Assembly: GCA_040753015.1 (NCBI GenBank)
Contig: JBFMHM010000001.1
Span: 211,157-275,156, forward strand
Direction: 5' to 3'
Length of the DNA: 64,000 bases
Source: Candidatus Omnitrophota bacterium
GTDB lineage: Bacteria; Omnitrophota; Gorgyraeia; Gygaellales; JBFMHM01
A model generated the notes under the pieces. The model ran no database searches. It saw only the letters and a program-made list of their open reading frames with translations, and was not told the DNA's origin. The translations under genes and the position numbers were made by a program. Position 1 is the stretch's first letter. Every line of letters starts with the position of its first letter. Positions 17,551 to 58,496 of this stretch are shown here, in pieces.

Positions 17551-17557
17551 GATAATT

Positions 17558-17585
17558 GTAGAGACGCATTGCAATGCGTCTCTAC
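17558..17585. repeat. 28-bp perfect palindrome GTAGAGACGCATTGCAATGCGTCTCTAC (copy 1, asd-truA junction)
   Basis: Perfect inverted repeat. Overlaps the asd stop codon. Identical to the copy at 32090-32117 and near-identical to 48496-48523. Confidence 0.9.
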
Positions 17586-18625
17586 TGTTTAATCAATAAT
17601 TCCGCAATCTGTACGGCATTTAATGCAGCGCCTTTAAGTAAATTATCACTTACAATCCAAAGCCAAAGGCCTTTATGCTCAAATGGATCCTTCCGAATCC
17701 TGCCGACAAATGTATCATCAAGTCCTGCGCAATCTACTGGCATGGGGTATTTTTGAGCTATAGGATCATCAACTAATTTTATGCCGGGAGCGTTTTCTAA
17801 CGCCTTATGAATTTCTTTTATAGTCAATTCTCGCTCTGTCTCAATATATACTGATTCGGAATGCCCTCTAGAAACAGGAACTCTCACACAAGTAGCAGAA
17901 ATTTTAATGTTCTCGTCGTGCATAATCTTATGCGACTCTCTGACAACTTTCCATTCTTCAGTGGTAAAAGAAAATTCTTTAAAACTACCGATTTGAGGAA
18001 AAACATTAAATGCTATTTGTTTTGGCAATGCGCTTGGCACTGTTTTAATATGCAGATGTTCATTAGCTATAGGATTATTATGAAGTTCTAATATCTCTTT
18101 GTTTTGATTCCAAAGCTCAATTACGGCTTCTTTGCCCGCCCCAGATGCTGCCTGCAGAGTCGTAATAATTACCCGCTTAATCTTTGATAATTTATATATT
18201 GGCCAAAGCGCCGCAACAAGCTGTATTGTCGAACAATTTGGGTTAGAAATTATACCTTTATGATGAAAAACATCGCTAGAATTCACTTCAGGAACAACTA
18301 AAGGTACGGTTTCCTCCATTCTAAAATCTGCGCCATTATCAATGACTACCGCGCCTGCTTTAATAGCTATTGGAGCGTAAATCACAGCTGCGCCTTTTTC
18401 ACCTTCAGTGCCGGCAAAAAGAGCTATATCTACACCTTCAAAACTCTTGTCAGAAATAGCTTCAACCTGATAATCTCTATTATCTACTCTAATAACACGG
18501 CTACTTCTTGCTAGCACTTTCAGCTTATCTACTGGAAATTTTCTGTGGCTAAGGCATCTAAGCATTTCCTCGCCAACAACACCCACTCCAATTACTGCAA
18601 CATTGTAACTTTTTTTCTTTTGCAT
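17582..18625 (-). CDS. asd: Aspartate-semialdehyde dehydrogenase
   Basis: 347 aa. VAVIGVGVVGEEM N-terminus and NPNCSTIQ active-site Cys motif. Confidence 0.9.
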   Translation of the reverse strand: MQKKKSYNVAVIGVGVVGEEMLRCLSHRKFPVDKLKVLARSSRVIRVDNRDYQVEAISDKSFEGVDIALFAGTEGEKGAAVIYAPIAIKAGAVVIDNGADFRMEETVPLVVPEVNSSDVFHHKGIISNPNCSTIQLVAALWPIYKLSKIKRVIITTLQAASGAGKEAVIELWNQNKEILELHNNPIANEHLHIKTVPSALPKQIAFNVFPQIGSFKEFSFTTEEWKVVRESHKIMHDENIKISATCVRVPVSRGHSESVYIETERELTIKEIHKALENAPGIKLVDDPIAQKYPMPVDCAGLDDTFVGRIRKDPFEHKGLWLWIVSDNLLKGAALNAVQIAELLIKQ

Positions 18626-30360: not shown

Positions 30361-31582
30361 AGATATTTTCTTTCGTGACTTTGTTAATTTTTAAATTTAC
30401 TAATTCTCGCCTTAGATCATTTTTTGAATCTACCAATATCTTTATATAATTATCAGTATAACCGACCTGGAAGCCGTTTTTTTTATCACGAGCCGACTCA
30501 ACTAAAACCCTAACTTCTTTATTTAAGAATTTTTTATGGTATTGGTAAGCTAAATTATCACAAACTTTTTTCAATTCTAAGAAGCGTTTTTTCTTATCTT
30601 CATCAGAAACTTTTGGAAAAAACTCAACAGCCTTTGTACCAGCTCTATCACTGTAAGAAAAAATATGAGTCCTAGAAGGATTAATTTTTTTTATAAAATT
30701 TAGTGTGTTTAAAAAATTTTTATTAGTTTCATAAGGAAACCCTATTATAACATCAGTTGTAATTGCAATTTGCGGAATTTTTTTTCTTAGATTACTTACT
30801 AATCCTAAAAAATCTTTTGTCAAAAATTTACGGTTCATTTTTTTTAAAATTCTATCGTCTCCGGATTGCAAAGGTAGATGTAAATGTTTAGAGATAAATT
30901 TATAATTACAAATTGCTTTAATTAAATCTTTACTAACATCTTCTGCCTCGATCGAAGAAAGACGAATTCTAGCAATATTATTAATTTTTCCTAATCGCTC
31001 TAAAACATCGGCCAATGATAGCTTAGGCGACAAATCCCGGCCATAGGCACCTAAACAAATCCCAGTTAAAACTATCTCTTTAAACCCCCTCTCAGTTAAA
31101 CAATTTACTTCTTTGATAATTTCATCTAGCGGGCGGCTTTTTGATCTGCCGCGTACCAGAGGCACCTTACAATACGAACAAAAATTGTCACAGCCATCTT
31201 GAATTTTTACAAATGCCCGATCATGGCCTTTAAAATCGGAAATACCATAAGTTTTCTGACTATTTTTTATAATCTCAACCCTGCCGCCAAACCTATTTAA
31301 AATTTTATCCTTATCTTTTTCAACAAGACAACCCGTTACAATAATTTTGGCTTTTGGGTTTTCTTTGATAGCACGGTTGATTAAATAGAAAGATTCTCTG
31401 TCGGCTTTATCTGTTACTGTACAAGTATTAATTACATAAACATCAGCTATTACCCCAGAAGATACTTCCGATAAATTTTGAGGGGATAAATTTTCACGGA
31501 TAGCCTGCGACTCATACTGATTTACTTTACAACCAAGGGTTAGAATTTTAAATGTTTGCATGAAATAATTACGGGCGAACAC
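30341..31582 (-). CDS. MiaB-family radical SAM tRNA methylthiotransferase (MtaB-like)
   Basis: 413 aa. N-terminal MTTase Cys region (TLGCKVNQYES), radical SAM CxxxCxxC (CDNFCSYC), C-terminal TRAM-like region. Confidence 0.8.
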   Translation of the reverse strand: MFARNYFMQTFKILTLGCKVNQYESQAIRENLSPQNLSEVSSGVIADVYVINTCTVTDKADRESFYLINRAIKENPKAKIIVTGCLVEKDKDKILNRFGGRVEIIKNSQKTYGISDFKGHDRAFVKIQDGCDNFCSYCKVPLVRGRSKSRPLDEIIKEVNCLTERGFKEIVLTGICLGAYGRDLSPKLSLADVLERLGKINNIARIRLSSIEAEDVSKDLIKAICNYKFISKHLHLPLQSGDDRILKKMNRKFLTKDFLGLVSNLRKKIPQIAITTDVIIGFPYETNKNFLNTLNFIKKINPSRTHIFSYSDRAGTKAVEFFPKVSDEDKKKRFLELKKVCDNLAYQYHKKFLNKEVRVLVESARDKKNGFQVGYTDNYIKILVDSKNDLRRELVNLKINKVTKENIYAKYPC

Positions 31583-32312
31583 ATAGGTTCACCCCTACAG
31601 CTACAAAAATAGCTGCAGTATCTACTTTTAATATTCTCTTACCAAGTGTTACTGGTTTCGAACCATGTTTAATAGCGAATTCGACCTCTTCTTTTGTAAA
31701 ATCTCCCTCTGGGCCGATTAAAGCTAAAATTTTCGGACAGGCACATGGGCCTGTCCCTACAGAACAAATTGCATCCTTAAATGTAACTCGTTTACCCTCT
31801 AATGTCGGGATAATTATTAAATCATATTTTTCGTCAAAAATATCTTTAAAAAATTTAATTTCATCAATCTTAGTAATTATTGGATTGGAACTTTGTTTGG
31901 CAGCCTCTCTTGCAATTTTCCTAAAACGCTCGGCTTTTTGCCTTACTTTATCAACCGACAATCTTACAATTGTGCGTTCAGTAACTATTGGTATAATCCG
32001 AAAAACACCAAGCTCTGCCAGTTTTTCGACAATATATTCAAACTTTGCATTTTTAGGAAGCGCGCAGGCAATAGTCAGTTCGGACGTCTGTAGAGACGCA
32101 TTGCAATGCGTCTCTACAATTTTCACAACAATCTCATCTTCATTAATCTTATCAATTATGCCAGCATAACTATTTCTTTTTTCATCAAATAAATTTATCT
32201 TATCACCCAAATTATATCGGCGGGATTTTATAATATGCGCAATCTCTTTGGGGTCAGTAATTAAAATTAAATTACTATTAATGTTTTTTGATTCTGCGAA
32301 AAATTGACTCAT
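31569..32312 (-). CDS. rsmE: 16S rRNA (uracil1498-N3)-methyltransferase
   Basis: 247 aa. RsmE-like C-terminus (LGKRILKVDTAAI). Contains the 28-bp palindrome in-frame (VETHCNASLQ). Confidence 0.8.
   Translation of the reverse strand: MSQFFAESKNINSNLILITDPKEIAHIIKSRRYNLGDKINLFDEKRNSYAGIIDKINEDEIVVKIVETHCNASLQTSELTIACALPKNAKFEYIVEKLAELGVFRIIPIVTERTIVRLSVDKVRQKAERFRKIAREAAKQSSNPIITKIDEIKFFKDIFDEKYDLIIIPTLEGKRVTFKDAICSVGTGPCACPKILALIGPEGDFTKEEVEFAIKHGSKPVTLGKRILKVDTAAIFVAVGVNLCVRP
32090..32117. repeat. 28-bp perfect palindrome GTAGAGACGCATTGCAATGCGTCTCTAC (copy 2, inside the rsmE coding sequence)
   Basis: Identical to 17558-17585. Translated in-frame within rsmE. Confidence 0.9.
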
Positions 32313-32318
32313 AATAAA

Positions 32319-32394
<76 letters not shown>

Positions 32395-32398
32395 TAAG

Positions 32399-33046
32399 TT
32401 AACTAATTGATTGTTCGCGGCAGGCAACATTCGTGGTAAGACTAACTTCAGGATTATTTATTGGATGCGGGTTTGGATCATTTATGTTTTGCCGAGTACG
32501 AAGTGTAAGTTGATAAACTAATGGCGTATCATCATTGGTATTACCATTATTATTGTAATCAACAAGAACTGGCTCTACCTGCAATTCAACATCCCTCGCC
32601 AATACGGTATCTTCAATAACGCCTACTTGATTCGGACTAACTCTCATAAATCTTAATTGTTTATTATTATTGGTATATACATATCTACCTACCTCATCGG
32701 TATTAGTAAATTCACCAAATGGAGAAGCAACATCATGCTTAATCTCTAATATTATACCAACGCCAGGCTCAACCCTTAATGCAACTGTCGGATTATCCTT
32801 ATATCCAATCCCAGTATAGACATTTTTTACAATATGTTCCATAACCGGCGAGATACGGTTCAAAAGTTCGGCCTGCTTATCTTGTACTGTACCCATCCTA
32901 CGCGACCAGATTTCAACTGTTCCAGCAGTAAGCGCTACCATACCAACCAAAGTTATAGCAATAATTAATTCGATTAATGTTATACCTTTATCTTTACGCT
33001 TTTCGCTTTGCACTTTTCGCTTTCTCATCATCTCGGTGGCGTCCAT
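32399..33046 (-). CDS. Minor pseudopilin with prepilin-type N-terminal cleavage/methylation domain
   Basis: 215 aa. KGITLIELIIAITLVGM class III signal. The start may be an internal Met overlapping the upstream stop. Confidence 0.7.
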   Translation of the reverse strand: MDATEMMRKRKVQSEKRKDKGITLIELIIAITLVGMVALTAGTVEIWSRRMGTVQDKQAELLNRISPVMEHIVKNVYTGIGYKDNPTVALRVEPGVGIILEIKHDVASPFGEFTNTDEVGRYVYTNNNKQLRFMRVSPNQVGVIEDTVLARDVELQVEPVLVDYNNNGNTNDDTPLVYQLTLRTRQNINDPNPHPINNPEVSLTTNVACREQSIS

Positions 33047-33384
33047 CTAACAGTAACCGTGACTTTTCGACAGGTTGAGTTATCAACATTCTCAACTCTA
33101 TAACTTTTAGAATAATTAATTATACCTTCTCGCTCAGCCGGCAACACAACATCATCCATAACCCTAAGCCCGCCTGTATTCCAAGTATCAGCCCTAACCT
33201 GATCTTTTAAACTCTCTAAAACACCGCGCGCAATATTTATTGCCTGTAAACGGTATTTTGCATGAAGCGCAAAACGCTTACCAGCGGTAAATGTAGCAAG
33301 AAGCCCGGCAATAACACTTACTAAAATAACCATCGCCACAACCACTTCAACCAAAGTTAAACTTCTTTTACTAAATATTCGCAT
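33028..33384 (-). CDS. Minor pseudopilin (GspI/PilV-like) with atypical Ser at the -1 position
   Basis: 118 aa. MRIFSKRS-LTLVEVVVAMVIL hydrophobic segment with Glu+5. C-terminal TVTVRW resembles GspI. The 5-prime end is copy A of the repeated pilin leader segment. Confidence 0.6.
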   Translation of the reverse strand: MRIFSKRSLTLVEVVVAMVILVSVIAGLLATFTAGKRFALHAKYRLQAINIARGVLESLKDQVRADTWNTGGLRVMDDVVLPAEREGIINYSKSYRVENVDNSTCRKVTVTVRWTPPR

Positions 33385-33385
33385 A

Positions 33386-34012
33386 TTAAATTTTCTTTGC
33401 CATTTTTCTTACCTCTGCTTCAAAATATTTTTTAACTTCTTCCCAACTTATTTTCTTAAGCATCCTCGGCATAATACTTACATCTGCATCAATAAAATAA
33501 ACCAAACTTTTTTGAATATGAATTATATTCGAAGCGAGCGTTCCATATTTACGGTCATAAAAAAGCAGCATATCTTTTAAAGAAATGCCGCTTTGACAGA
33601 GAAAATAAAGATCAATAAAATCTCTTTTTATTCCACGTGTTGAAATAGCGTCTATTTTCATTGCGGCAATATCCCGTAAATCAAGAATATTTATATTAAA
33701 TAACGGATTAGAACCAAATAAAACAGGGTACTTATAATAAAAAATGCTGAATTTTGCTTCATTAATAGTTCCTAATAATGTTGCCCATCTTTGCTGCTCT
33801 AATTTAAAACCAACAGCTTTCCTTAAACCATCTGCTAAAACACTTGTATCAAATTCTTCCGGCGTAAAAAAATCCAAATCAACCGAAATTCTATGCCCCA
33901 ACTGTAACGCGCAAGCAGTTCCACCAGCTAAATAAGCTTTATCAAAAAACGCTGTTTTACCTAATAAAATTAGAGCGTCTTTAGTTTCTTTAGATAAGGT
34001 TTCTGTAAACAT
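33386..34012 (-). CDS. Nucleotidyltransferase AbiEii/AbiGii toxin family protein (DUF1814-like)
   Basis: 208 aa. AYLAGGTACALQLGHRISVDLDFF motif typical of AbiEii-type type IV TA toxins. Confidence 0.7.
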   Translation of the reverse strand: MFTETLSKETKDALILLGKTAFFDKAYLAGGTACALQLGHRISVDLDFFTPEEFDTSVLADGLRKAVGFKLEQQRWATLLGTINEAKFSIFYYKYPVLFGSNPLFNINILDLRDIAAMKIDAISTRGIKRDFIDLYFLCQSGISLKDMLLFYDRKYGTLASNIIHIQKSLVYFIDADVSIMPRMLKKISWEEVKKYFEAEVRKMAKKI

Positions 34013-34263
34013 AAAATTTTTTTCTTGTCAATACCGAAAACAACTGCCCAAAAATTCGCACTCATTGGTGAAACCATACGAAAATGCGTTAACGCATAGG
34101 CAATTTGATGTTTAGTAAAATGCTTACTCATCCAATTAACAGCCGTCTTATCGCCATATTCAAGCATCCTGCATAAAACATCTTGCCGGCCGTGCTCTAA
34201 TCTTAGTTTGTCAAACTCTACATCCCAGAAATACTTTTTTAAAAATTTTGGCAGTTTTGTCAT
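33970..34263 (-). CDS. Small partner protein of the AbiEii-like gene (putative antitoxin)
   Basis: 97 aa. YFWDVEFDKL...VLCRMLEYGDKTAVNWM motif, commonly found upstream of AbiEii-like nucleotidyltransferases. The antitoxin role is inferred from position only. Overlaps the downstream gene by 43 nt. Confidence 0.5.
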   Translation of the reverse strand: MTKLPKFLKKYFWDVEFDKLRLEHGRQDVLCRMLEYGDKTAVNWMSKHFTKHQIAYALTHFRMVSPMSANFWAVVFGIDKKKILCLQKPYLKKLKTL

Positions 34264-34264
34264 T

Positions 34265-34333
34265 TTACTTCTCTAAAATCATCGCCACAACCACTTCAAC
34301 TAAAGTTAGGGATTTATTTTGACTTATCCTCAT
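34265..34333 (-). pseudogene. Pilin 5-prime remnant (copy B): 22-codon ORF MRISQNKSLTLVEVVVAMILEK
   Basis: Same conserved segment catcgccacaaccacttcaacYaaagtta as the intact pseudopilin start. Its ATG overlaps the hepT stop (ATGA). It stops 1 nt before the partner-gene ATG. Confidence 0.6.
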
Positions 34334-34662
34334 TTAATCTTCTCAATTTGAATTTTTAGTTTTGGTAATTTATCTTCAATTACATCCCAAACAATCTCCC
34401 AATTTACACCAAAATAATAGTGAATAATTTTATCGCGTAGGCCCGATATTTTCTTCCACTCAATTTCTTTATATCTTAATCTAATATTCGCAGGGATATG
34501 CTTAGCTGCTTCGCCAATAATTTCTAAATTACGCACAACAGCATCACGTGTTTTCAAATCTTTCAAAAATTTTTCATACCTTAAATTACCAACATAAGAA
34601 TCAATTCTTTCGATACTTTCTAATATATCTTTTAAAAACTCTATATTTTCTCTTTTAACCAT
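34330..34662 (-). CDS. hepT: HepT-like HEPN RNase toxin (DUF86)
   Basis: 110 aa. RDAVVRNLEIIGEAAKHIP and Rx4HxY motif (LRDKIIHYY). Overlaps the upstream mntA by 8 nt. Confidence 0.85.
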   Translation of the reverse strand: MVKRENIEFLKDILESIERIDSYVGNLRYEKFLKDLKTRDAVVRNLEIIGEAAKHIPANIRLRYKEIEWKKISGLRDKIIHYYFGVNWEIVWDVIEDKLPKLKIQIEKIK

Positions 34663-34960
34663 AAATTACACTTTTTTTAATATCATCTTTAATGGTTTTT
34701 ATAGATATACTTTTTACGCCCATTGGCGTCAAAACATCTACTTTCTTACCAAAGACTTTTTCAAGAAAAAATACTAAATCCATAAAATTATCAAAACTAG
34801 GTTTTTTAAATTCAACCAAAAAATCAATATCACTTTTTTTTGTTTGTTCTTGGCGAGCATAAGAACCAAACAAACCAATTTTTTTTACCTGATATTTTTC
34901 TAATTCAGTATTGTGTTTTTTTAATTCTTCAAAAATATTTTTTTTAGTTAAATTCTTCAT
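34655..34960 (-). CDS. mntA: MntA-like minimal nucleotidyltransferase antitoxin
   Basis: GLFGSYARQEQTKKSDIDFLVEF (GS...DxD). The ATG at 34958-34960 (MKNLTKK) is preferred. The track extension to 34987 is a TTG inside the pilin repeat. Confidence 0.85.
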   Translation of the reverse strand: MKNLTKKNIFEELKKHNTELEKYQVKKIGLFGSYARQEQTKKSDIDFLVEFKKPSFDNFMDLVFFLEKVFGKKVDVLTPMGVKSISIKTIKDDIKKSVIYG

Positions 34961-35021
34961 ATTTATCCATCGCCACAACCACTTCAACCAAAGTTAAACT
35001 TTTTTTATTAATAATTTGCAT
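34944..35021 (-). pseudogene. Pilin 5-prime remnant (copy C): 25-codon ORF MQIINKKSLTLVEVVVAMDKYEEFN
   Basis: 35 nt identical to the intact pseudopilin start (33028..33384). It terminates inside the first codons of mntA. Confidence 0.6.
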
Positions 35022-35034
35022 AGTTATTTTTATC

Positions 35035-35084
35035 TAAAAAAGAGAACCCTGCCGGCAGGCAGGCCTGACTACCGTTAGGTAGTC
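35035..35084 (-). terminator. Rho-independent terminator at the end of the tandem pilin genes
   Basis: Hairpins cctgccggcagg and gactaccgttaggtagtc. On the minus strand they are followed by UUCUCUUUUUU. Confidence 0.55.
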
Positions 35085-35118
35085 GTCCCCTTTTCTCTTA
35101 TAAATAAATTTATTTTAC

Positions 35119-35565
35119 CTACGGATTTGGACAACCTTCGCCACTACATACTATCTCATTATCATCAATACTTAATGACCAAGTTCGCGCATTAGCCTCA
35201 GCGACATTCTGTCTTACAGAATGTATCGCAATGCTTCCAGCACCCCATCTAACATTATTAACTCCATACGCCCAATTTGAATTATTAACAGGTAAATCTA
35301 GATTAAGTTCTTGATTAAGTTCGGCAGTACACGGAAAGGCGTTTCCGCAAACATAATAAACATTATTATGCTTTAACGCATAAATTTTTTCTGCGGCTGC
35401 AATTAGCTTTAAAACGGTTTTTGCTTCTTCATCTCTTGCCCGCTCTGCCTTGCCTAAATAATTCGGAGCAGCTAAACTTACCAAGATACCAATCAACACA
35501 ACTACAATAATAAGTTCAATTAAAGTAAAACCTTTTATTTTCATTTTATCCTTTACTCGAATCAT
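35119..35565 (-). CDS. Type IV pilin-like protein
   Basis: 148 aa. KIKGFTLIELIIVVVLIGILVSLAAPNY class III signal plus hydrophobic helix. C-terminal Cys pair. Confidence 0.8.
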   Translation of the reverse strand: MIRVKDKMKIKGFTLIELIIVVVLIGILVSLAAPNYLGKAERARDEEAKTVLKLIAAAEKIYALKHNNVYYVCGNAFPCTAELNQELNLDLPVNNSNWAYGVNNVRWGAGSIAIHSVRQNVAEANARTWSLSIDDNEIVCSGEGCPNP

Positions 35566-35581
35566 TGTTTATAACTAATCA

Positions 35582-36022
35582 TTACGGACCACCTGGCGCC
35601 TCGCCCCAAGGATCAGGAGGGCCGCCTCTACCCTCTACAGACATATCATGTATTTGGCAATCTTTATTAAGCCACAAAACATCCTGCCCCGAAGACGATC
35701 TTTGAGCTACAGCGAAAAAATTGTCGGCATTCGCGTTTTCAACACGAAAATTCCAATTTCGATTAACACTATAAGGAATGCTTAACCCAAGTTCAGTATT
35801 GCATGCCTCTGTCGTAGCACAACTCCTGTAAATCTTGGTAGATTCAAAAATATCTTTCTCTGCAGCACAAATTAATTGTAAAATTGCCGCTGCTTCATTA
35901 TTAATTGCCTTTTCTCTACGGCCAAAATAATTGACCATGCCAATACCTGCTAAAATCCCAATTAAAAGAATTGTAATTACAAGTTCAATAAGGGTAAAAG
36001 CAATTTTTTTATTTTTTATCAT
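35582..36022 (-). CDS. Type IV pilin-like protein (Ala at -1)
   Basis: Likely start MIKNKKIAFTLIELVITILLIGILAGIG. The track start at 36052 is probably an upstream extension. Confidence 0.7.
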   Translation of the reverse strand: MIKNKKIAFTLIELVITILLIGILAGIGMVNYFGRREKAINNEAAAILQLICAAEKDIFESTKIYRSCATTEACNTELGLSIPYSVNRNWNFRVENANADNFFAVAQRSSSGQDVLWLNKDCQIHDMSVEGRGGPPDPWGEAPGGP

Positions 36023-36029
36023 TATAATC

Positions 36030-36398
36030 TTAAATTCGCAATACATCGTCATTAATATTGCCGCTGATTAAATTAATCGTAATAATATATCTGTTTGCTG
36101 TGCAGCGTTCGGCGACAGCTTCATTACCAGATGAATAATAACTAAAAAATCTTTCTGGAGAACATCCTCCTAAACCTCCAAAACCTAAATCTGCTAAATT
36201 TTCAGTATATGCCCCATGCTCATTCTTCCAGATTTCTTGAGCAGTGCGAATTTCAGCCAACATTCTATATGCTTCAGCTGCCCTGCCTCGTTCAAGCTGT
36301 TTTTGAAATCTGGGTATTGCAAGGGTAGCAAGAAGGCCCAATACTATAATTACAACTACCAGCTCGATTAGGGTGAATGCTCTACCTTGCTTCTGCAT
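36030..36398 (-). CDS. Type IV pilin-like protein (Ala at -1)
   Basis: 122 aa. QGRAFTLIELVVVIIVLGLLATLAIPRF. Confidence 0.75.
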   Translation of the reverse strand: MQKQGRAFTLIELVVVIIVLGLLATLAIPRFQKQLERGRAAEAYRMLAEIRTAQEIWKNEHGAYTENLADLGFGGLGGCSPERFFSYYSSGNEAVAERCTANRYIITINLISGNINDDVLRI

Positions 36399-37086
36399 TC
36401 GCTATGACCCCCAACCCCCAAGCCTGGTCACAAACTAAATCACCATCAGTATCAACACAAAATTCTCGATTACCAGTCACCAGATCCGTATATTCAAAAA
36501 GTATGCCGGGATTACCATCATTATCAAGAATAGGATCAGCATCAGCTGGCCAAGCCACTATAACAGCATCATCTCCTGCACTTCCTGACGCTCCATCTAC
36601 TCGATCACCTACTTGCGGATGACCACCGCCAGCATTTCCACCGCCGCCTGCGCCAAGACCACCGTCGGCACCACCTGCGCCGCCTGGGATATTTAGAGGC
36701 GATAACGCGCCCGTAGCTAAATCAATGTTTATTTTATATTCTTCTGGCCAATTAGGCTGCTTACCACTAGCATTTCTGCTGCATCTATAAGCAACAGCTA
36801 AATTCTGCCCAGCACGATTTGCGACTATCCGATAAAAAAAATAATGACCAGAATTACACTGTTTTAGCTCTGCCTCAACATCAAACCCTGTTAAATTACC
36901 GTGCTTAACCAAATAAACTTGCGCGTCATCACGAATTGATCCAAGCATTTGATAGGCCTCAGCTGCGCGGCCCTTTTCAAGTTGTATTTGATAGCGCGGC
37001 AAAGCAATTGTAACTAAAAGCCCGATTACAATTATCACAACCACAAGCTCAATTAAGGTAAATCCAAATTTTTTATTCATAATCAC
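36382..37086 (-). CDS. Type IV pilin-like protein with a Gly-rich C-terminal extension
   Basis: 234 aa. KKFGFTLIELVVVIIVIGLLVTIALPRYQ. C-terminal GGAGGADGGLGAGGGGNAGGG low-complexity tract. Confidence 0.75.
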   Translation of the reverse strand: MIMNKKFGFTLIELVVVIIVIGLLVTIALPRYQIQLEKGRAAEAYQMLGSIRDDAQVYLVKHGNLTGFDVEAELKQCNSGHYFFYRIVANRAGQNLAVAYRCSRNASGKQPNWPEEYKINIDLATGALSPLNIPGGAGGADGGLGAGGGGNAGGGHPQVGDRVDGASGSAGDDAVIVAWPADADPILDNDGNPGILFEYTDLVTGNREFCVDTDGDLVCDQAWGLGVIANAEAR

Positions 37087-37096
37087 CGCCTACAAA

Positions 37097-37134
37097 GTAG
37101 AGACGTCTCGCCGCAATTAGGCGGACGTCTCTAC
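37097..37134 (-). terminator. Stem-loop immediately downstream of the first pilin gene (attenuator or partial terminator)
   Basis: gtagagacgtc...gacgtctctac arms (11 bp) with a nested ccgc/gcgg hairpin. The arms match those of the 28-bp palindrome family. Only a weak U-run follows. Confidence 0.45.
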
Positions 37135-37176
37135 GAATACATCAAAAACAGAAGCGTCCCCTTTTACCCTTTTTAC

Positions 37177-37617
37177 TTATTGTTGAATCATGTTGGCACA
37201 ACGACCAGCTGCAAAAACATTTTCCGGCGTAATCTGACCATTATGATTAAGTAAAATTCTACCTCCATCACAATATCCCCCATCTCTTTCAGCTACAGCA
37301 GTAAATTCAGTGGCATCTACATCCTCTATTGAAAAGTCCCAGCCATTTAAAGCATCTATCGCGGGTCGTAATGCACCATCAAGTTCATTATCCAAATCTC
37401 CGTTTGCAGCTAAATTACCCGAATAAGTATTAGTTGAAGCATGGACAATACTCTGAGCCTTCCTTATCATATCTAGAACTGCTAATGCACGAGCAACTTG
37501 CCCTCTTTCAAGCATCTTTCGATATTGCGGCAAACCTAATGTAATCAATAAACCAATAATTATAATTACAATTATAAGTTCTACCATCGTAAAACCTTTT
37601 CCCCTAAACATTCTCAT
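37177..37617 (-). CDS. Type IV pilin (candidate major pilin)
   Basis: 146 aa. RGKGFTMVELIIVIIIIGLLITLGLPQY. First gene after the long leader with a strong SD (AAAGGAGGAG). Followed by a hairpin. Confidence 0.8.
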   Translation of the reverse strand: MRMFRGKGFTMVELIIVIIIIGLLITLGLPQYRKMLERGQVARALAVLDMIRKAQSIVHASTNTYSGNLAANGDLDNELDGALRPAIDALNGWDFSIEDVDATEFTAVAERDGGYCDGGRILLNHNGQITPENVFAAGRCANMIQQ

Positions 37618-38013
37618 TTTCTCCTCCTTTGTAACCGCAAAGACGCTAAATTCGCTAAAACGCGAAATTGTTTTTTTCTGCGTTTTCGCGGTTGTATTTT
37701 GTGTTTTTTATTCTTTTTTGTTGGTATTTTTCTTTTTTTGCGTTTTGGCGGTTGCACCTCCTATCTAAAGAATAACACAAATTTATAATAAAAACAAGTT
37801 TAGAAGCGTAAAACGTAAAGCGAAAAATGTAAAATTAAAACTTAAAATTTAAAGTTTCTTGCCCCTTAAAGTCAAAATACTTGAACCTAAAATATTAGCA
37901 AGTTCGCCTGCTTCTTATAATATTCAATACAAATTTATATGCTCTTGTTTTTGAATCCATTTTAAATTTTAAACTATCACTTTGCGTTTTTAGCTTTACA
38001 CTTTACGTTTTCT
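37618..38013 (-). promoter_or_regulatory. 396-bp AT-rich non-coding leader/promoter region upstream of the pilin genes, with repeated motifs
   Basis: No ORF of 60 aa or more. Minus-strand direct repeats CAACCGC(C/G)AAAACGCA about 60 nt apart and an inverted copy GCGTCTTTGCGGTTAC next to the SD. Also AAAACG(T/C)AAAGTG repeats. I found no convincing -35/-10 pair. Confidence 0.4.
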
Positions 38014-39267
38014 TTACCTGCCGCCGCCGATATTCACCATACTAAATATAGGCAGATACATTGAAACAACCAACACGCCAACAATTCCGCCCATAAACAC
38101 AATCATCAGCGGCTCAAACATTGCCGTAAAACGAGTAAGCTGTGTTTCTACTGCCTCACGGTAATATGCAGCAACTTTTTTAAGCATTGCTCCTAGTTCA
38201 CCGATCTCTTCTCCTACGCGTACCATTTGAACCAACATCGGCGCGAAAAAATTACTTTTTTCTAAAGGCCCTGCTAGAGACTTACCATCACGCACATCAG
38301 CCTTAACTTGCCTAATAATATCCTGCATAATTACATTGCCGCTTGAACGCTCAACAATATCCAAGGCATAAAGTATAGGTACACCGCTTTCAACTAATGT
38401 AGAAATTTCGGATGTAAAACGTTCAACTGCCACAGTTTTAAAAAAATCTCTAAGCATAGGAAGATTAAATAACAAAGTATCAAATTGACGCTTGCCTGAA
38501 TCAGTTTTTACATAGGCCTTAAATGCATAAACACCACCGGCAATAAGTAGAAAAATTAAAAAGAAGTAATGGCGCATAAAATTGCTAAAACCAATAACAA
38601 ATTGTGTCAAGGCCGGCATTTGGCCGCCGAGATTTTGGAAAATATCGGCAAAAGTAGGAATAATTTTAAATGTAAAGAAAAATATCGCAATGATACAAAC
38701 ACCGAAAAGTATTGCCGGATAAATTAATGCTGAAATCATTTTTCTTCTAAACGCTGCTTGTTCTTCTAGATATGCGGCAAGCCTGTCCAAAATAAGAGGC
38801 AAATTACCGCTTGCCTCTCCTGTCTCAACTAGATTCGCCCACATACTTGAAAAAATTTTGGGATGCCGTGCTAGCGCCTCATGAAAAGATACCCCGCCTT
38901 TAACATCTTCGACTATCTTTAGAGTCGCGTCTAATAAAATCTTGCTTTCAACTTGTTTTACAATAATTTCCAAGCTCTTTAATAAACTAATCCCTGCGCC
39001 AAGCATAGTCGCAAGCTGCCTTGAAAACATAACTAAATCATTTAGTCTTACACCACGGTGCATTTTTGTATGGACAATTGGAATATTTAATGATGCAGGT
39101 GATACAGCAGATTTCTCGTTTATAATCTCTGGAATTTCTGTTATATTTGTTACAATAAGCCCGCGATTCTGCAGGCGCGATAATAATTCATCAGAGCTAG
39201 CTGCGTCTTCAAGACCTTTTACCTTTTTGCCCGAAATATCCCTTGCCTCAAAATTAAATTTTGCCAC
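38014..39267 (-). CDS. pilC: Type IV pilus inner-membrane platform protein
   Basis: 417 aa. GspF/PilC family with two repeated T2SS_F domains and three TM regions. Confidence 0.85.
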   Translation of the reverse strand: MAKFNFEARDISGKKVKGLEDAASSDELLSRLQNRGLIVTNITEIPEIINEKSAVSPASLNIPIVHTKMHRGVRLNDLVMFSRQLATMLGAGISLLKSLEIIVKQVESKILLDATLKIVEDVKGGVSFHEALARHPKIFSSMWANLVETGEASGNLPLILDRLAAYLEEQAAFRRKMISALIYPAILFGVCIIAIFFFTFKIIPTFADIFQNLGGQMPALTQFVIGFSNFMRHYFFLIFLLIAGGVYAFKAYVKTDSGKRQFDTLLFNLPMLRDFFKTVAVERFTSEISTLVESGVPILYALDIVERSSGNVIMQDIIRQVKADVRDGKSLAGPLEKSNFFAPMLVQMVRVGEEIGELGAMLKKVAAYYREAVETQLTRFTAMFEPLMIVFMGGIVGVLVVSMYLPIFSMVNIGGGR

Positions 39268-48488: not shown

Positions 48489-49492
48489 TGCTTTTGTAAA
48501 GACGCATTGCAATATGTCTCTACCGCTAACTTAATCGCTTCAATTATTGAACCAGGATTAGCTTTATTTTTGCCAGCAATATCAAAAGCGGTGCCGTGTA
48601 ACGGAGTAGTCCTGATAAATGGTAGGCCGCAGGTAAAATTAACCCCCTGCTCATATCCTAATATTTTAAGCGGTATCAATGCCTGGTCATGATACATTGC
48701 AACAAGCACATCATATTTCTTCTCTCTAACTAATTCCTTAACGGCTGAATCAGCCGGTATTGGCCCATAAACAAGGCAGCCTTTATTCTTTGCTTGTATA
48801 ATTGCCGGTGTAATAACTTTCTTTTCTTCATCGCCAAAAATACCTCCGTCTGACGCATGAGGATTTAAACCACAAACACATATACGCGGTTTTTTTATAT
48901 TAAAAATTTTTTTTAGAGATTGATTTGTAATTATTATAGTCTTGAAAATATTGCTTTGAGTCAATTGCTTGCTAACATCCTTGAGAGCAACATGGCGAGT
49001 AACTAGAGTAAAATAATATTTGCCGACAATCAACATCATCAAAAAATCTTTTATATTAAATTTACCTGCTAGATATTCTGTATGGCCGTTAAATTTTATA
49101 CCGGCTTTATTTACCGCTTCTTTATCAACAGGCGCTGTAACTAAACAATCGGCCTTTTTTTCTTTAATTAATTTTACCGCTAACTCTAAATATTCAAATG
49201 ATGCCCTGCCATACCTTGCATCAACCTTGCCAAATTTAAAATTATTTCTTGGCACATTATTTAAATCTATGAATTTAAAGTTTTTCGCTTTTCGCTTTTC
49301 GCTTTTCGCTTTGTTAAACGCCCATCTATCTCCAATAACCGCAAACTCGGCCAACTTTGCTATCCCTGGATTGTTTAATCCCTTAAAGATAACCTCCGGC
49401 CCAATACCAGAAGGATCCCCCATAGTTATAATAATTCTTGGTTTAATCATTTTATTTGTATATATGCTTTTTTCTTTAACCCATCGAGCCAC
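48485..49492 (-). CDS. pdxA: 4-hydroxythreonine-4-phosphate dehydrogenase
   Basis: 335 aa. ITMGDPSGIGPEV N-terminus. The last 11 codons (VETYCNASLQKQ) are encoded by palindrome copy 3. Confidence 0.9.
   Translation of the reverse strand: MARWVKEKSIYTNKMIKPRIIITMGDPSGIGPEVIFKGLNNPGIAKLAEFAVIGDRWAFNKAKSEKRKAKNFKFIDLNNVPRNNFKFGKVDARYGRASFEYLELAVKLIKEKKADCLVTAPVDKEAVNKAGIKFNGHTEYLAGKFNIKDFLMMLIVGKYYFTLVTRHVALKDVSKQLTQSNIFKTIIITNQSLKKIFNIKKPRICVCGLNPHASDGGIFGDEEKKVITPAIIQAKNKGCLVYGPIPADSAVKELVREKKYDVLVAMYHDQALIPLKILGYEQGVNFTCGLPFIRTTPLHGTAFDIAGKNKANPGSIIEAIKLAVETYCNASLQKQ
48496..48523. repeat. 28-bp palindrome copy 3 (GTAAAGACGCATTGCAATATGTCTCTAC, 2 mismatches) at the pdxA 3-prime end
   Basis: Near-identical to copies 1 and 2. 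Confidence 0.85.
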
Positions 49493-52231: not shown

Positions 52232-52295
52232 GAAAGTGAAAAGTTTAAAACGAAAAATGCAAAGTTTTAAACCTTAGATTTTAACTTTACGCTTT

Positions 52296-54467
52296 TCACT
52301 TTGCGCTTTTCGCTTTCTTCTGCCAGGCTAAAACAAGCGGTGAAGCAATATAAACTGTCGAATAAATACCTGATATAAAACCAACCAATAAACAGAATGC
52401 AAATGTGTTTAGCGCACTACCTCCGTAAAAGAATAATACTAAGACTACCATAATCACGGTAAAAGAAGTAAGGATAGTTCTGCCTAATGTTTGATTTAAT
52501 GCTAGATTAATTATCTGGGCTAATGGTAATTTTGACCCACGCGATAATTCACGGATTCTGTCATAAATAACAATGGTATCGTTTATCGAATAACCAGCAA
52601 TAGTTAAAAATGCGGTAACAACTAAAAGATCAATCTGCCTGCCAAACAAACTGACTGCGCCTAATGTAATCAAAACATCATGAAAAAGTGCAATAACACC
52701 GGCTATACCAAAATCCCAATGTTTGAATCTAAACCCTACGTATGCAAGTATTCCTATTAGAGCCCAAATAAGAGCAAGGTTTGCCTTTTTTTGTAGCGCC
52801 TTACCGACAACCGGACCAACCTCTTCAATCCTTAAAATTTGGAATGAATTATCAGGAAAATCTTTTTTAAACATTGCCTGTATCGGCTCGGATGTATCGG
52901 TTGTAGTCCTAATTATAATTTGTTTTGGATTATTTTCAACGCTCTGAAGCGAAGCATCTGATAAACCAATACTTTTCAAATTGCTTCTAATCTTATCAAG
53001 CGGTATTTCTTTATCAAAAACATACTCCTGAATTTCTCCACCAGAAAAATCCAAGCCATAGATATCTTTTTGTCTATGCATAAAACTTACTAACCCTAAA
53101 ATAATAATAATCGCTGAAAGCGCATAAAAGAATTTCCTTTTTGAAACAAAATCAACATTTGTCTTTGGAAAAAATTGAATCATTGGAAGGCTTTTTAAAA
53201 TTTTCGCGTCAATTAAAAATTCCATTATAGCTCTCGTAACGAATACTGCTGTAAAAATACTCGCTATAAGGCCAATAGTCAATGTTACAGCAAAACCCCT
53301 TATTGCGCCTGTTCCGAATTGAAATAATAGAAAAGCTGCAATTAAAGTAGTAACATTAGAATCAATAATTGCACTCAACGCCTTATTATATCCGGCAGTC
53401 AAAGCCGAACGTATCGGACGGCCGAGTTTCAGCTCTTCTCTAATTCTTTCATTAATAAGAACATTGGCATCAACTGCCATACCTAGTGTTAAAATAATAC
53501 CGGCAATACCAGGCAGGGTTAAAGTAGCATGAAAGAAACCCATACCTCCTAATATAATTAGTATATTTAACATAAGAGCAATATTAGCAACAAAACCGGC
53601 AAATAAATAATAAATTGCCATAAAAATAACGACTAAAATACCGCCGATTAAAGCAGCGGTTACACCATTTTTTATAGAGTCTTTGCCTAACCCAGGACCA
53701 ACGGTTCTTTCTTCAAGAACCTCTAAAGGCGCAGGGAGAGCGCCAATTCGTAAAACAATAGCAAGGTCTGATGCATCTTCGTTTGTAAAACGCCCGCTTA
53801 TTTGGGCGCGCCCAGAAGGAATCGGCTCATTTATCCGCGGAGCAGAATGCACCTTACCATCGAGAATAATTGCAAGCTGCCTGTTCACATTCTGTGTAGT
53901 GATATCAGCAAATGTCTTAGTACCGTCCGGCGTAAATCCTATGCCGACATAGGGCTGTCCATATTGATCGAATTCTACCTTTGCTTCACTTAACGCCTCG
54001 CCTGTTAAAACCGGCTTTGCTTCAAGTAGAATCGGGTTATTATCCACATATTTTAATTCATAATTTTGCGGTACATTTCCTGAGATAGCATCCTTAAGCC
54101 GAACAGGGTCGGTATCAACTAACTTAAACTCTAAAAAACCTGTTCTCTTTACAAGCTCAAGCGCCCTCTGGCGATCCACCATACCAGGTAATTGAATAAC
54201 AATCTGGTCTTCGCCTTGTGGCTGAATTAACGGCTCAGCTACGCCAAATTCATCTATACGATTGCGTAATTTTTCAAGCGCCCTCTCCCTGGCATCTTTT
54301 TTCGCTTCGGGAGCTAGATTGCTTACATCAACTTGCAATACTAAATGCATTCCACCCTGCAAATCAAGCCCTAGATTAATCTTTTTCTTTAAAGGCAATG
54401 CGTAATACAACGATAAAAGAATAACGCCAATAATTACTAGTACTTTAAAAAATAGCTTTTTAGACAT
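52296..54467 (-). CDS. secDF: Protein translocase subunit SecDF (fusion)
   Basis: 723 aa. SecD N-terminus (LGLDLQGGMHLVLQVD) and two 6-TM RND-like blocks. Confidence 0.9.
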   Translation of the reverse strand: MSKKLFFKVLVIIGVILLSLYYALPLKKKINLGLDLQGGMHLVLQVDVSNLAPEAKKDARERALEKLRNRIDEFGVAEPLIQPQGEDQIVIQLPGMVDRQRALELVKRTGFLEFKLVDTDPVRLKDAISGNVPQNYELKYVDNNPILLEAKPVLTGEALSEAKVEFDQYGQPYVGIGFTPDGTKTFADITTQNVNRQLAIILDGKVHSAPRINEPIPSGRAQISGRFTNEDASDLAIVLRIGALPAPLEVLEERTVGPGLGKDSIKNGVTAALIGGILVVIFMAIYYLFAGFVANIALMLNILIILGGMGFFHATLTLPGIAGIILTLGMAVDANVLINERIREELKLGRPIRSALTAGYNKALSAIIDSNVTTLIAAFLLFQFGTGAIRGFAVTLTIGLIASIFTAVFVTRAIMEFLIDAKILKSLPMIQFFPKTNVDFVSKRKFFYALSAIIIILGLVSFMHRQKDIYGLDFSGGEIQEYVFDKEIPLDKIRSNLKSIGLSDASLQSVENNPKQIIIRTTTDTSEPIQAMFKKDFPDNSFQILRIEEVGPVVGKALQKKANLALIWALIGILAYVGFRFKHWDFGIAGVIALFHDVLITLGAVSLFGRQIDLLVVTAFLTIAGYSINDTIVIYDRIRELSRGSKLPLAQIINLALNQTLGRTILTSFTVIMVVLVLFFYGGSALNTFAFCLLVGFISGIYSTVYIASPLVLAWQKKAKSAK

Positions 54468-56552: not shown

Positions 56553-56861
56553 TTATTTTATCTTCCTATAAAAACAGCTCTTATTATTAGTATGACAGGC
56601 AGCGCCAATCTGTTTAACTAAAATTAATAAAGCATCTCTATCGCAATCATAATAAATATTTTTTATGAATTGAAAATGTCCTGATGTCTCACCTTTGACC
56701 CAATATTCTTTGCGCGAACGCGACCAAAAACAAGTCTTACCTAATTTTAAAGTCTTTTTTACAGACTCTTTATTCATATAGGCAAGCATTAACACTTTTT
56801 TTGTTTTATAATCCTGAATTATCGCTGGGATTAAACCATTTGCATCATATTTTAATATCAT
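56553..56861 (-). CDS. hisI: Phosphoribosyl-AMP cyclohydrolase
   Basis: 102 aa. [26 protein letters not shown] motifs. Confidence 0.9.
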
Positions 56862-57625
56862 ATCCTCACCAATATATTATTTTTATTTAAATAATCCTTA
56901 ACTTGCTTTACCGAAAACTCTCCGTAATGAAAAATACCAGCAGCTAAGGCGGCTGAAGTATCTGTTTTGTTAAATACGTCTTTAAAATGATTTAGTTTAC
57001 CCGCGCCACCCGAAGCAATAACAGGTATATTTACGGCTTTATTTACAGCCTTAGTCAGCTCAATATCAAACCCATCTTTTGTACCATCATAATCCATGCT
57101 TGTCAATAGAATCTCACCAGCGCCAAACGCTTGGCATTTTTTTACCCATTTAACAACATCGAGACCGGTCGCAGTCCTGCCACCGTGAATATATACTTCA
57201 CCTTGGCGAGCGTCAATTGCAACTACAATGCATTGGCTACCGAATTTTTTTGCGCCTTCGGTGATCAATTTTGGGTTTTTTACTGCTGCAGTATTAATTG
57301 AAACCTTGTCTGCCCCGGCATTAAGCAAAGCACGAATATCTCCGATATTACGCACGCCCCCGCCAACAGTTAATGGCATAAACACACTTTCTGCTGTACG
57401 TTTAACTACATCTAAAATTATATTTCTTTTCTCGTGGCTTGCAGTTATATCTAAAAAAACTAATTCATCCGCGCCCTGTTTATCATATAAAGAAGCTAAC
57501 TCAACAGGGTCTCCTGCGTCTTTTAATTTTAAAAATTTAACGCCCTTAACAACCCTGCCCTTATCAACATCCAAACAAACAATTATTCGTTTTGAAAGCA
57601 TTTTATTATTTAATCTAGGTAGCAA
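56858..57625 (-). CDS. hisF: Imidazole glycerol phosphate synthase cyclase subunit
   Basis: 255 aa. [29 protein letters not shown] motifs. Confidence 0.9.
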
Positions 57626-57637
57626 AATAGCATTTGG

Positions 57638-57976
57638 TTAACTAGCTTTTTTATAAACTATTCTGCCGGTTGAAATTATTTCTGAAAGAAAAGATAAAGC
57701 ATTTGGCCTTCTAATTTCTTTCGGGGTATAGCCTAATGCTTCTATAGGCTCTTTAAGTGGGAATATTGCCTCGCCTAAAATTTCTTGACGCTTTAATAAA
57801 TTTTTACCATTAAAACTTGAAGATACAACAGCTATATCTATGTCGCTATAAGGCTTTTGTTTACCCTGCGCATAAGAACCAAACAGAATCAATTTATCTA
57901 CACTAATTCCGCGAGCCTGAAGAGAAGTCTTCAGTTTGTTAACTATCTGATTTATTTTATTTGACTTTTTAACCAT
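57638..57976 (-). CDS. Nucleotidyltransferase-domain protein (MNT partner of the HEPN protein)
   Basis: 112 aa. LILFGSYAQGKQKPYSDIDIAVV (GS...DxD). Overlaps the upstream HEPN gene by 25 nt. Confidence 0.8.
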   Translation of the reverse strand: MVKKSNKINQIVNKLKTSLQARGISVDKLILFGSYAQGKQKPYSDIDIAVVSSSFNGKNLLKRQEILGEAIFPLKEPIEALGYTPKEIRRPNALSFLSEIISTGRIVYKKAS

Positions 57977-58429: not shown

Positions 58430-58448
58430 GCATTTAGTAATACTAAAT
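58430..58448. promoter_or_regulatory. Palindromic putative operator catttagtaatactaaatg upstream of the HEPN/MNT pair
   Basis: Perfect 8-bp arms with a 3-bp spacer. A second half-site copy catttagtaat lies at 58473-58483. Confidence 0.35.
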
Positions 58449-58496
58449 GTCAATTAAAATTATCATTTAGTAATTAGAGGGAATTTTAATAAGACA

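Follow-up and report, generated by a model that had tools for sequence, protein, structure and literature searches.

How chromosomal toxin-antitoxin (TA) modules spread outside recognizable mobile elements is a long-standing question, and it is raised by a locus among the minor pilin genes of a Candidatus Omnitrophota metagenome-assembled genome (MAG). The locus lies in a 64 kb stretch on a 417 kb contig; this whole stretch is called the window here, and all positions refer to it. Two putative TA cassettes, mntA-hepT and DUF6922-AbiEii, are arranged between three copies (C, B, and A) of the 5ʹ end of a pilin gene, of which copy A opens an intact gene (pilin A) and copies C and B open short stubs. 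Together with two related loci, L081 and L082, the slot was seen in an empty, a one-cassette, and a two-cassette state; a recombinant junction had been kept, the cassette content had turned over, and the flanks had stayed. We consider it probable, by a modest measure, that promoterless TA cassettes were integrated here by homology-driven (Campbell-type) recombination and built up in tandem, at a hotspot before this GspI/PilV-like gene. Proteins of the source MAG include MEW5758105.1 and MEW5758108.1, and both stubs are unannotated in that record. Read along the minus strand, the features of the slot and its immediate flanks are as follows (aa, amino acids; ORF, open reading frame).

35119-35565, minus strand: 148-aa pilin gene (GspG/PilA-like), the last before the slot; Pfam N_methyl 3.4e-7
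35036-35096, minus strand: branched hairpin with U-tract, intrinsic-terminator-like, between the 148-aa pilin gene and stub C
34967-35021, minus strand: copy C, from the ATG to ...GCGATGG, opening the 25-codon stub ORF 35021-34944
34655-34960, minus strand: mntA, MNT nucleotidyltransferase (predicted antitoxin); Pfam NTP_transf_2 4.8e-16
34330-34662, minus strand: hepT, HEPN RNase (predicted toxin); Pfam HepT-like 1e-30
34280-34333, minus strand: copy B, with homology perhaps reaching to 34270, opening the 22-codon stub ORF 34333-34265
33970-34263, minus strand: DUF6922 gene, 97 aa, presumed antitoxin partner of AbiEii; Pfam DUF6922 1.8e-9
33386-34012, minus strand: short AbiEii-family nucleotidyltransferase, 208 aa; Pfam AbiEii 6.5e-17 and PADLOC AbiEii models
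33028-33384, minus strand: pilin A, intact 118-aa GspI/PilV-like minor (pseudo)pilin; copy A = 33384-33330
32399-33046, minus strand: 215-aa pilin in the GspJ position, the last of the pilin cluster; Pfam N_methyl 8.5e-7
32319-32394, minus strand: tRNA-Ala(CGC), the end of the locus, found with ARAGORN and also present 3ʹ of the L082 cluster

The original prediction, made from the sequence of the window, had placed the pilin 5ʹ segment at three sites, and its coordinates, the lengths of the two stubs (22 and 25 codons), the intact 118-aa ORF (33384-33028), and the identities of the genes were all confirmed, as were the ATGA overlap of the hepT stop with the copy-B start and the position of the mntA ATG (34960) within the copy-C ORF. 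The 30-mer TTAACTTTGGTTGAAGTGGTTGTGGCGATG was found on the minus strand as an exact match at 33331-33360 and 34968-34997 and with two mismatches at 34280-34309, and it had no match in 100 shuffles. Six copies were then aligned, namely A, B, C, the L081 stub, and the pilin genes of L081 and L082. The repeat begins at the ATG. Copies A and C were identical over 35 nucleotides (nt) (AAGTTTAAC...GCGATGG) and differed at 5 of the first 24 nt; 5ʹ of the core, copy B was strongly diverged from both, being very different from the other copies over its first 30 nt. Each cassette is bounded by a copy of the repeat, and the ends of the cassettes are the start and stop codons. Past GCGATG, copy C shares one more base (G) with copy A, and its junction to mntA reads GCGATGG followed directly by ATAAATATG; in copy B, 7 of the 16 nt past GCGATG (ATTTTAG) match pilin A if a 3-nt gap is allowed; and the L081 stub stops 3 nt earlier, after GCG. 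The junctions thus cluster within 3-13 nt and are not identical, so that the single shared breakpoint first proposed did not hold up. Likewise, the distance to the next gene, given before as 1-10 nt, was wrong for copy B: from GCGATG to the next start codon there are 7 nt at copy C and 16 nt at copy B. The core is identical at synonymous sites in five copies of two genomes, and the adjacent pilin sequence differs by about 13%. It also holds a pair of TGGTTG hexamers, spaced by about 10 nt, and a short palindrome, AAGTT-T-AACTT. No exact match to the core was found in viral contigs.

Stub B proved to be the most informative of the copies. Its 5ʹ part carries 23 nt, AAATCCCTAACTTTAGTTGAAGT, identical to the L082 allele, after which GGTTGTGGCGATG is identical to copies A and C. 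Compared with copy A, it carries the codon-family switches Ser AGT to TCC and Arg CGA to AGG. Switches of this kind are a product of selection on the protein, and the beginning of stub B therefore evolved in a functional pilin gene of another lineage; the comparison of alleles shows stub B as a recombinant (mosaic) of foreign and resident pilin 5ʹ alleles. Stub C, on the other side of the mntA-hepT cassette, retains the native upstream flank that it has in common with the L081 stub; over its 5ʹ part and this flank (T-tract and stub) the two are orthologous, with 92.6% DNA identity. A native flank on stub C together with a mosaic stub B is the pattern predicted by a crossover within the core.

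Relatives of pilin A are few: three were found in 5.8 billion proteins, and two of these gave genomic context. In L082, whose pilin is 56% identical, the gene order agrees with that of the window across six pilin genes and the tRNA-Ala. There, the 137-aa and 124-aa pilin genes, which are the orthologues of the 148-aa and 118-aa genes, lie 1 nt apart, with no stub, cassette, or intergenic hairpin, and by this gene order L082 represents an empty site. In L081 (Logan ERR15087771), whose pilin protein is 78% identical, a hairpin with a T-tract is followed by one stub, DUF6922-AbiEii, and the pilin gene, and the cassette is flanked by a 52-nt direct repeat of 96% identity (50/52 nt). As L081 is an independent assembly with the order stub, cassette, pilin gene, the architecture is not an artefact of this MAG. 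The empty L082 and the single-cassette L081 together indicate that the cassettes are insertions and that the stubs are duplications made on insertion. It had been suggested that the cassettes replaced the bodies of pilin genes; this was not borne out, since the ancestral-type state in L082 is a single GspI-like gene abutting the upstream pilin gene, and the stubs are not decapitated paralogues. The idea of a cassette slot with homology-guided exchange, in turn, gained from the empty site in L082, the single and non-orthologous cassette in L081, and the recombinant nature of stub B.

We found that the cassettes and their flanks differ in their histories. Between the window and L081, DNA identity was 88.5% in the first 200 nt of the pilin gene, 81% in the whole pilin gene, and 81-93% over the flanks, compared to 66-70% in the AbiE cassette; the proteins were 58.5% (AbiEii) and 49% (DUF6922) identical. 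The AbiEii family had 3231 members at E<=1e-15, and the closest protein from unrelated loci was 73% identical to that of the window. More than 119 members from unrelated contexts were 62-73% identical to the window copy, with a median of 67%, and the L081 AbiEii ranked last of 122. As a whole, the window cassette was no closer to that of L081 than to copies beside trpE, purF, GGDEF, and M50 peptidase genes. By these identities, the AbiE cassettes of the window and L081 are shown not to be vertical orthologues, which leaves two possibilities: recombination with another allele exchanged the interior, or cassettes entered the slot on two occasions. The two cassettes (33386-34263 in the window and 131-1008 in L081) are alike only at their extreme ends, with a Thr codon 2 (ATGACAAAA) and an extra C-terminal codon in ...AAGAAAwTTTAA, which hints at a shared ancestry with an interior replaced by crossovers in the conserved gene ends.

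Further copies of the slot were sought by pattern. A scan of the genome collection with a degenerate TLVEVVVAM pattern returned 80 loci with unrelated pilins from many phyla, the pattern being too loose, and a metagenome scan for K-S-L-T-L-V-E-V-V-V-A returned only two unrelated GspI-like genes, including that of L083. Short-ORF matches in L015, L016, and L077 were considered as further stubs and set aside as chance matches, that of L077 lying antisense within an 1840-aa gene.

The course of events that we favor would be the following. A cassette would carry along its own copy of the initial ~51-64 nt of the pilin gene and would enter by a single crossover within the conserved core (21-35 nt of identity), either from a circular intermediate (Campbell-type) or by an equivalent unequal exchange, presumably dependent on RecA or on a short-homology pathway. 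Downstream of the cassette there would then be a complete pilin gene of hybrid sequence, and on the upstream side of the cassette an orphan 5ʹ stub would be left. If another cassette integrated into such a stub, the result would be the tandem array of the window, in the order stub C, mntA-hepT, stub B, DUF6922-AbiEii, and pilin A. For this step, an incoming foreign pilin 5ʹ segment joined to mntA-hepT would have recombined with the resident stub within the 21-nt identical stretch GTTGAAGTGGTTGTGGCGATG. The left crossover product, made of the resident 5ʹ part, the incoming 3ʹ junction, and mntA, would be stub C; the right one, made of the incoming 5ʹ part, the resident 3ʹ junction, and DUF6922, would be stub B. 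Recombination between direct repeats could also excise a cassette as a circle with one repeat, and the repeats would let related genomes exchange cassettes without a dedicated recombinase.

Whether such duplications accompany the cassette family elsewhere was examined at eight DUF6922-AbiEii loci. The units were flanked by duplicated host-gene termini of 21-100 nt at five of the eight, as follows.

Window: repeat of 41-64 nt, pilin 5ʹ end
L081: repeat of 52 nt, pilin 5ʹ end
L092: repeat of 48 nt with 85% identity, 3ʹ end of a purQ-like gene; the orphan copy reads GEDGGLQIFRSGVEYAR as compared with EEGDGLQIFRNGVEYAR
L089: repeat of 100 nt with 91% identity, 3ʹ end of a PilZ-domain gene and downstream sequence; the second copy lies 11 nt past the AbiEii stop
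L093: repeat of 21-51 nt, 3ʹ ends of a convergent smc-like gene and a GGDEF gene

The duplicated sequence differs between the host genes at these loci, which argues for homology and not for one sequence-specific enzyme. As a control, 150 random segments of the window gave repeats at E<1e-6 only from the pilin repeats themselves and one low-complexity pair. No flanking repeat was found at the AbiE loci L090, L094, and L098, and no flanking duplication at three other HEPN/MNT pairs (L085, L088, and the pair in the his operon of the window, 57638-58335). Flanking duplication was accordingly rejected as a property of HEPN/MNT cassettes, being absent at all three.

Two of these AbiE loci have further features of their own. 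In L093 (1-4236), at least three small cassettes lie between the smc-like and GGDEF genes, separated by copies of the 3ʹ ends of both genes: a 153-aa ORF, DUF6922-AbiEii, and a truncated MNT gene with a 105-aa ORF. A promoter and a 17-codon DUF6922 5ʹ stub stand in front of the unrelated 153-aa ORF. In L098 (2251-2427, the same in L099), a helix-turn-helix gene, DUF6922, AbiEii, a 71-aa ORF, and DUF6036 are directly preceded by a 5ʹ fragment (58 aa) of uppP (BacA). No full uppP gene is present within 3 kb, and the fragment is either a disrupted gene or a stub with its partner beyond that DNA.

Several other explanations have to be weighed against homology-driven integration. The original prediction had allowed for site-specific recombination, and in its strongest form this would be a recombinase acting in trans, encoded elsewhere in the genome or by a helper element, with the pilin core as attachment site, the stubs as attL-type sites, and the cassettes non-autonomous. 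Such an enzyme would account for the junctions of three cassettes within 3-13 nt, for the synonymous-site identity of the core in five copies against ~13% divergence beside it, and for a tandem array of promoterless, ORF-precise cassettes, and the paired TGGTTG hexamers and the palindrome in the core would suit it. However, no integrase, transposase, or resolvase domain was found in the minus-strand ORFs of at least 90 aa in the window, the junctions do not fall at one nucleotide, gene conversion among the repeats would equally give conservation of the core, and the same cassette family elsewhere uses the unrelated 3ʹ ends of purQ-like, PilZ, GGDEF, and smc-like genes. A candidate shared motif, the 7-mer TGCAGAT in the repeats of L081, L092, and L093, is missing from L089 and from all three window copies and was treated as chance. 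Site-specific recombination was therefore not supported, no recombinase gene having been found in the 64 kb and the duplications at the other loci involving unrelated sequences, and we regard an enzyme in trans as unlikely. A transposition-like or break-repair insertion of DUF6922-AbiEii, with the pilin repeats as long and variable target-site duplications made in situ, is very unlikely. Direct repeats at five of eight AbiE loci would agree with it, and in four of the five a repeat copy begins 0-11 nt past the AbiEii stop, which suggests a defined right end. The repeats, however, vary in length from 21 to 100 nt, and there is neither a transposase nor a terminal inverted repeat, the inverted pairs at the cassette ends being AT-rich, imperfect, and at chance level. 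Moreover, the codon-family switches of stub B and the several synonymous changes in the orphan purQ copy of L092 do not fit a fresh duplication, and mntA-hepT is also bounded by repeats here, yet not at the three other HEPN/MNT loci.

The stubs might instead be decayed tandem GspI-like paralogues, between which TA modules landed independently while deletions removed the pilin bodies. Tandem duplication of pilin genes is frequent, five other pilin genes lie just upstream, and stub B does resemble a different allele; but the syntenic L082 has a single GspI-like gene, and random deletions would have had to stop on three occasions at points no more than 13 nt apart, and each time to leave the start codon of a cassette at a distance of 7-16 nt. 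Nor does the L081 stub look like a decayed paralogue, its 5ʹ part matching the pilin gene of L081 at 50/52 nt, and we give this account the same very low probability as an insertion with target-site duplication. Least probable of all, in our judgement, is that the two-cassette array is an assembly chimera, in which one strain with mntA-hepT and another with DUF6922-AbiEii were joined via the shared core. The sequence is a MAG, the mntA-hepT cassette is known from this assembly only, and the mosaic point of stub B coincides with the shared core, at which an assembler might pass from one path to another. Against this, the exact sequence shared by the B-type and C-type copies is ~21-29 nt, shorter than the k-mers with which current assemblers finish, the contig spans 417 kb, and L081 independently confirms the single-cassette architecture; even a chimera would leave alternative repeat-bounded cassettes at one slot.

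Homology-driven integration has weak points of its own, and the following weigh against it. The identical core available for a crossover is only 21-35 nt, at the lower limit for RecA-dependent exchange. The three stub-cassette junctions within 3-13 nt are not obviously expected from independent illegitimate capture, and this clustering could mean a sequence-specific step or selection for short harmless stubs. The model leaves unexplained the ~95-nt hairpin region 5ʹ of stub C, which is absent from L082. Duplication is not obligatory for insertion either, as it is absent at three of eight AbiE loci and at all three other HEPN/MNT loci. Finally, the order and polarity of events rest on few genomes, namely on the two related loci in the databases searched.

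The cargo of the slot was assigned from the translations. In type VII HepT/MntA systems, MntA neutralizes the toxicity of HepT by adenylylation, and HepT carries an R-x4-6-H motif and MntA a GS-x10-DxD motif. The corresponding motifs were read as RDKIIH in hepT (R-x4-H) and GSYARQEQTKKSDID in mntA (GS-x10-DxD), and the two genes overlap by 8 nt. Both proteins missed the NCBIfam equivalog cut-off of 60 bits (HepT_toxin 51.2, MntA_antitoxin 41.5), and these sub-cut-off scores make mntA and hepT members at the family level, not equivalogs. By its motifs and domains, mntA-hepT is thus a predicted type VII HepT/MntA-like TA pair, a system described in PMC7641770. A search for a donor of mntA-hepT found none, the closest HepT homologues being 64-66% identical. 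A second pair of a HEPN (127 aa) and an MNT (112 aa) gene occurs in the window at 57638-58335 on the minus strand, between hisA (58497-59207) and hisF (56858-57625). This pair comes with TTGACA and TATAAT-like boxes of its own and a palindrome at 58441-58472, and no flanking direct repeat was found beside it.

For AbiEii, the Pfam score was 62.7 bits as compared with the cut-off of 22.5, and the translation contains a GG-x13-DxD motif. The DUF6922 gene precedes and overlaps AbiEii in all eight loci inspected. As to an AbiEi-type winged-helix antitoxin upstream of AbiEii, the DUF6922 protein had no AbiEi match in Pfam, NCBIfam, or PADLOC. DUF6922-AbiEii is accordingly classed, on domain content, as a putative AbiEii-containing pair of distinct type, and not as a classical AbiEi and AbiEii system. 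The GC content of the cassettes is 24-35% (24-29% in mntA) as compared with 36-42% in the flanks, and this low GC agrees with a foreign origin.

How the cassettes are expressed in the slot was considered from their immediate context. The hairpin at 35096-35036 had an RNA folding energy of −36.3 kcal/mol (z = −5.1), no shuffle out of 200 being as stable, and a terminator scan gave a match at 35063-35048; a simpler hairpin, with the same T-tract, occupies the corresponding position in L081. The ATG of stub C follows the terminator-like hairpin by ~15 nt, and within these ~15 nt no promoter-like site was predicted and no Shine-Dalgarno sequence was evident. The proposal that the cassettes had kept the promoter, ribosome-binding site, and leader of the pilin gene therefore fails on two counts, the gene in L082 having no upstream non-coding DNA and stub C of the window lying behind the hairpin with no such signals. 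AbiE cassettes at L093 and L094 carry TATAAT-like boxes, and the cassettes of the slot are trimmed to 7-16 nt 5ʹ of their start codons. The cassettes are probably transcribed by read-through from the pilin operon, and their translation is probably coupled to the neighboring ORFs, as the hepT stop and the stub B start overlap in ATGA, the stub B stop lies 1 nt before DUF6922, and the AbiEii stop lies 1 nt before the pilin A ATG. Translational coupling of the stub ORFs was tried as evidence of selection and dropped, since in AT-rich DNA a stop codon is expected within ~10 codons; the stub peptides are most likely by-products.

In several respects the locus resembles systems already described. 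Integrons hold arrays of gene cassettes by means of IntI, attI, and attC, and chromosomal integrons carry TA cassettes; papers in this area include PMC3856429. The slot is like such arrays in its tandem promoterless and ORF-trimmed cassettes, the repeated site between them, the TA cargo, an expression that would depend on upstream transcription, and the varying occupancy in related genomes. It is unlike them in that no IntI is found in the window, the repeat is taken from the coding start of a host gene, has the same sequence within the locus, and is not a cassette-specific attC hairpin, only two cassettes are present here, and the junctions are not at a fixed GTT core. The integron core GTTRRRY was nevertheless looked for; GTTAAAC is present on the plus strand in copies A and C and not in B, which is not significant with ~0.1 expected per segment. 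No cassette-specific attC hairpins were evident, the 3ʹ ends abutting a pilin ATG (1 nt or overlap) with no inverted repeats at the boundaries, as judged with no dedicated attC model run. Integrative islands, for their part, target and duplicate the ends of tRNA or protein genes as att sites, and undergo tandem accretion with integrase-less, cis-mobilizable elements. The slot shares with them the direct repeats of a target terminus, the intact hybrid gene on one side and the orphan stub on the other, and arrays from successive integration, and differs in that its cassettes, of 0.7-0.95 kb, have almost no non-coding DNA and lack an integrase, and in that the duplicated sequence varies by locus. 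In the IS26 translocatable unit, a circle of one repeat and cargo integrates beside an existing copy of the repeat and gives arrays; there the repeat is an insertion sequence encoding a transposase, whereas here it is host coding sequence with no enzyme. Transposons and insertion sequences in general would bring a transposase, terminal inverted repeats, and a short target-site duplication of fixed length, and none of these was seen.

The minimal mobile elements of Neisseria (Saunders and Snyder 2002, cited by PMC1797815) are thought to be exchanged by homologous recombination in conserved flanks. Like them, the slot holds small cassettes without mobility genes, which are alternative or absent at a syntenic site (L082, L081, and the window). 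Minimal mobile elements, however, lie between two different conserved genes with no duplication, whereas both flanks here are copies of the same short gene terminus, so that cassettes can enter by a single crossover, accumulate in tandem, and leave again by excision. Downstream of tpsA, cdiA, and rhs genes, orphan toxin-immunity cassettes (a literature example being PMC3848433) likewise combine gene fragments holding a conserved segment with toxin or immunity modules, as substrates for homologous swapping; their fragments are alternative 3ʹ ends of the toxin gene, whereas the fragment in the slot comes from the start of a structural gene unrelated to the toxins, and each cassette is a TA pair complete in itself. 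A literature search for TA cassettes bounded by duplicated host-gene ends, or for a cassette slot at a pilin leader, found no description, and the locus lacks defining features of integrons, minimal mobile elements, and integrative elements, in line with the earlier impression that this is not a described system. From these comparisons, we would place the locus as a variation on known cassette-exchange themes.

The duplications in the cassette family elsewhere point to a mechanism in which short conserved gene termini serve as portable homology arms. This might be extended, as a doubtful generalization, to an "integron without an integrase" of Omnitrophota, and conceivably also of other uncultured bacteria with compact genomes, where minimal TA circles with a short, highly conserved host-gene terminus would integrate by a single crossover, restore the host gene, leave an orphan stub behind, and form exchangeable arrays, with the 5ʹ end of the pilin gene and the 3ʹ ends of the purQ-like, PilZ, GGDEF, and smc-like genes as examples of such termini. 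If true, it would provide a general recombinase-independent route for the movement of chromosomal TA modules, explain how TA modules settle in essential operons without breaking them, and yield a search rule for uncultured lineages, namely orphan gene-end stubs beside small defense or addiction modules. If not general, the locus would still be a clean example of recombination-driven TA build-up in a pilus operon.

The slot belongs to an operon resembling those for type IV pili or the type II secretion system (T2SS), and every gene in the window is on the minus strand. Upstream of the slot, the following features were found.

45118-43625, minus strand: pilM/N, in the type IV pilus/T2SS-like operon
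43623-43087, minus strand: pilO, in the same operon
42645-41017, minus strand: secretin gene, in the same operon
40980-39268, minus strand: pilB, in the same operon
39267-38014, minus strand: pilC, in the same operon
Between 37617 and 35119, minus strand: five pilin genes, upstream of stub C

For pilin A itself, the Pfam N_methyl match was weak, with 18.7 bits as compared with the cut-off of 21.2, the NCBIfam matches to PilV, XpsI, and ComGE were sub-threshold, and no match was found among sequences of solved structures. Its assignment is supported by the operon context, with pilB, pilC, secretin, pilM/N/O, and six other pilin genes, and its place before a GspJ-sized pilin matches the G-H-I-J order of L083. 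The N-terminus, K-S/LTLVEVVVAM, has Glu at +5 and Ser, not Gly, at −1. This Ser in place of the canonical prepilin Gly at −1 (K-S/LTLVE) recurs in pilin A, both stubs, and the L081 and L082 orthologues. The 148-aa pilin had sub-threshold NCBIfam GspG/PilA matches and is orthologous to the 137-aa gene of L082, with 55% identity; the 215-aa pilin gene is the orthologue of the 206-aa gene of L082. The remaining genes in the window are housekeeping genes (arg, lys, leu, fab, his, sec, recG, mfd, and alaS). An Rfam scan of 31000-38500 found nothing besides the tRNA. The tRNA-Ala gene also gives a sub-threshold Rfam tmRNA match (43.5 bits, cut-off 47), which reflects tRNA-like similarity and not a tmRNA gene.

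Other repeats were noted in the window. A 29-nt perfect palindrome, TGTAGAGACGCATTGCAATGCGTCTCTAC, occurs three times, at 17557-17600, 32089-32132, and 48495-48538. The copy at 32089 lies in frame in an rsmE-like gene (VETHCNASLQ), between the PUA and methyltransferase domains, much like the palindromic elements that occur in frame in Rickettsia. In L092 (399-420), a hairpin of similar kind, GGGGCATATTGCAATGTGCCCC, comes after the stop codon of the purQ-like gene. Repeats of the AAAGCGAAAAGCG type lie at 32959-33016, 49255-49312, and 52252-52309, one of them encoding the Lys/Arg-rich N-terminus of the 215-aa pilin, and repeats of the TTTTTGATTTTTGAT type lie near gene ends at 6361-6394 and 8605-8638.

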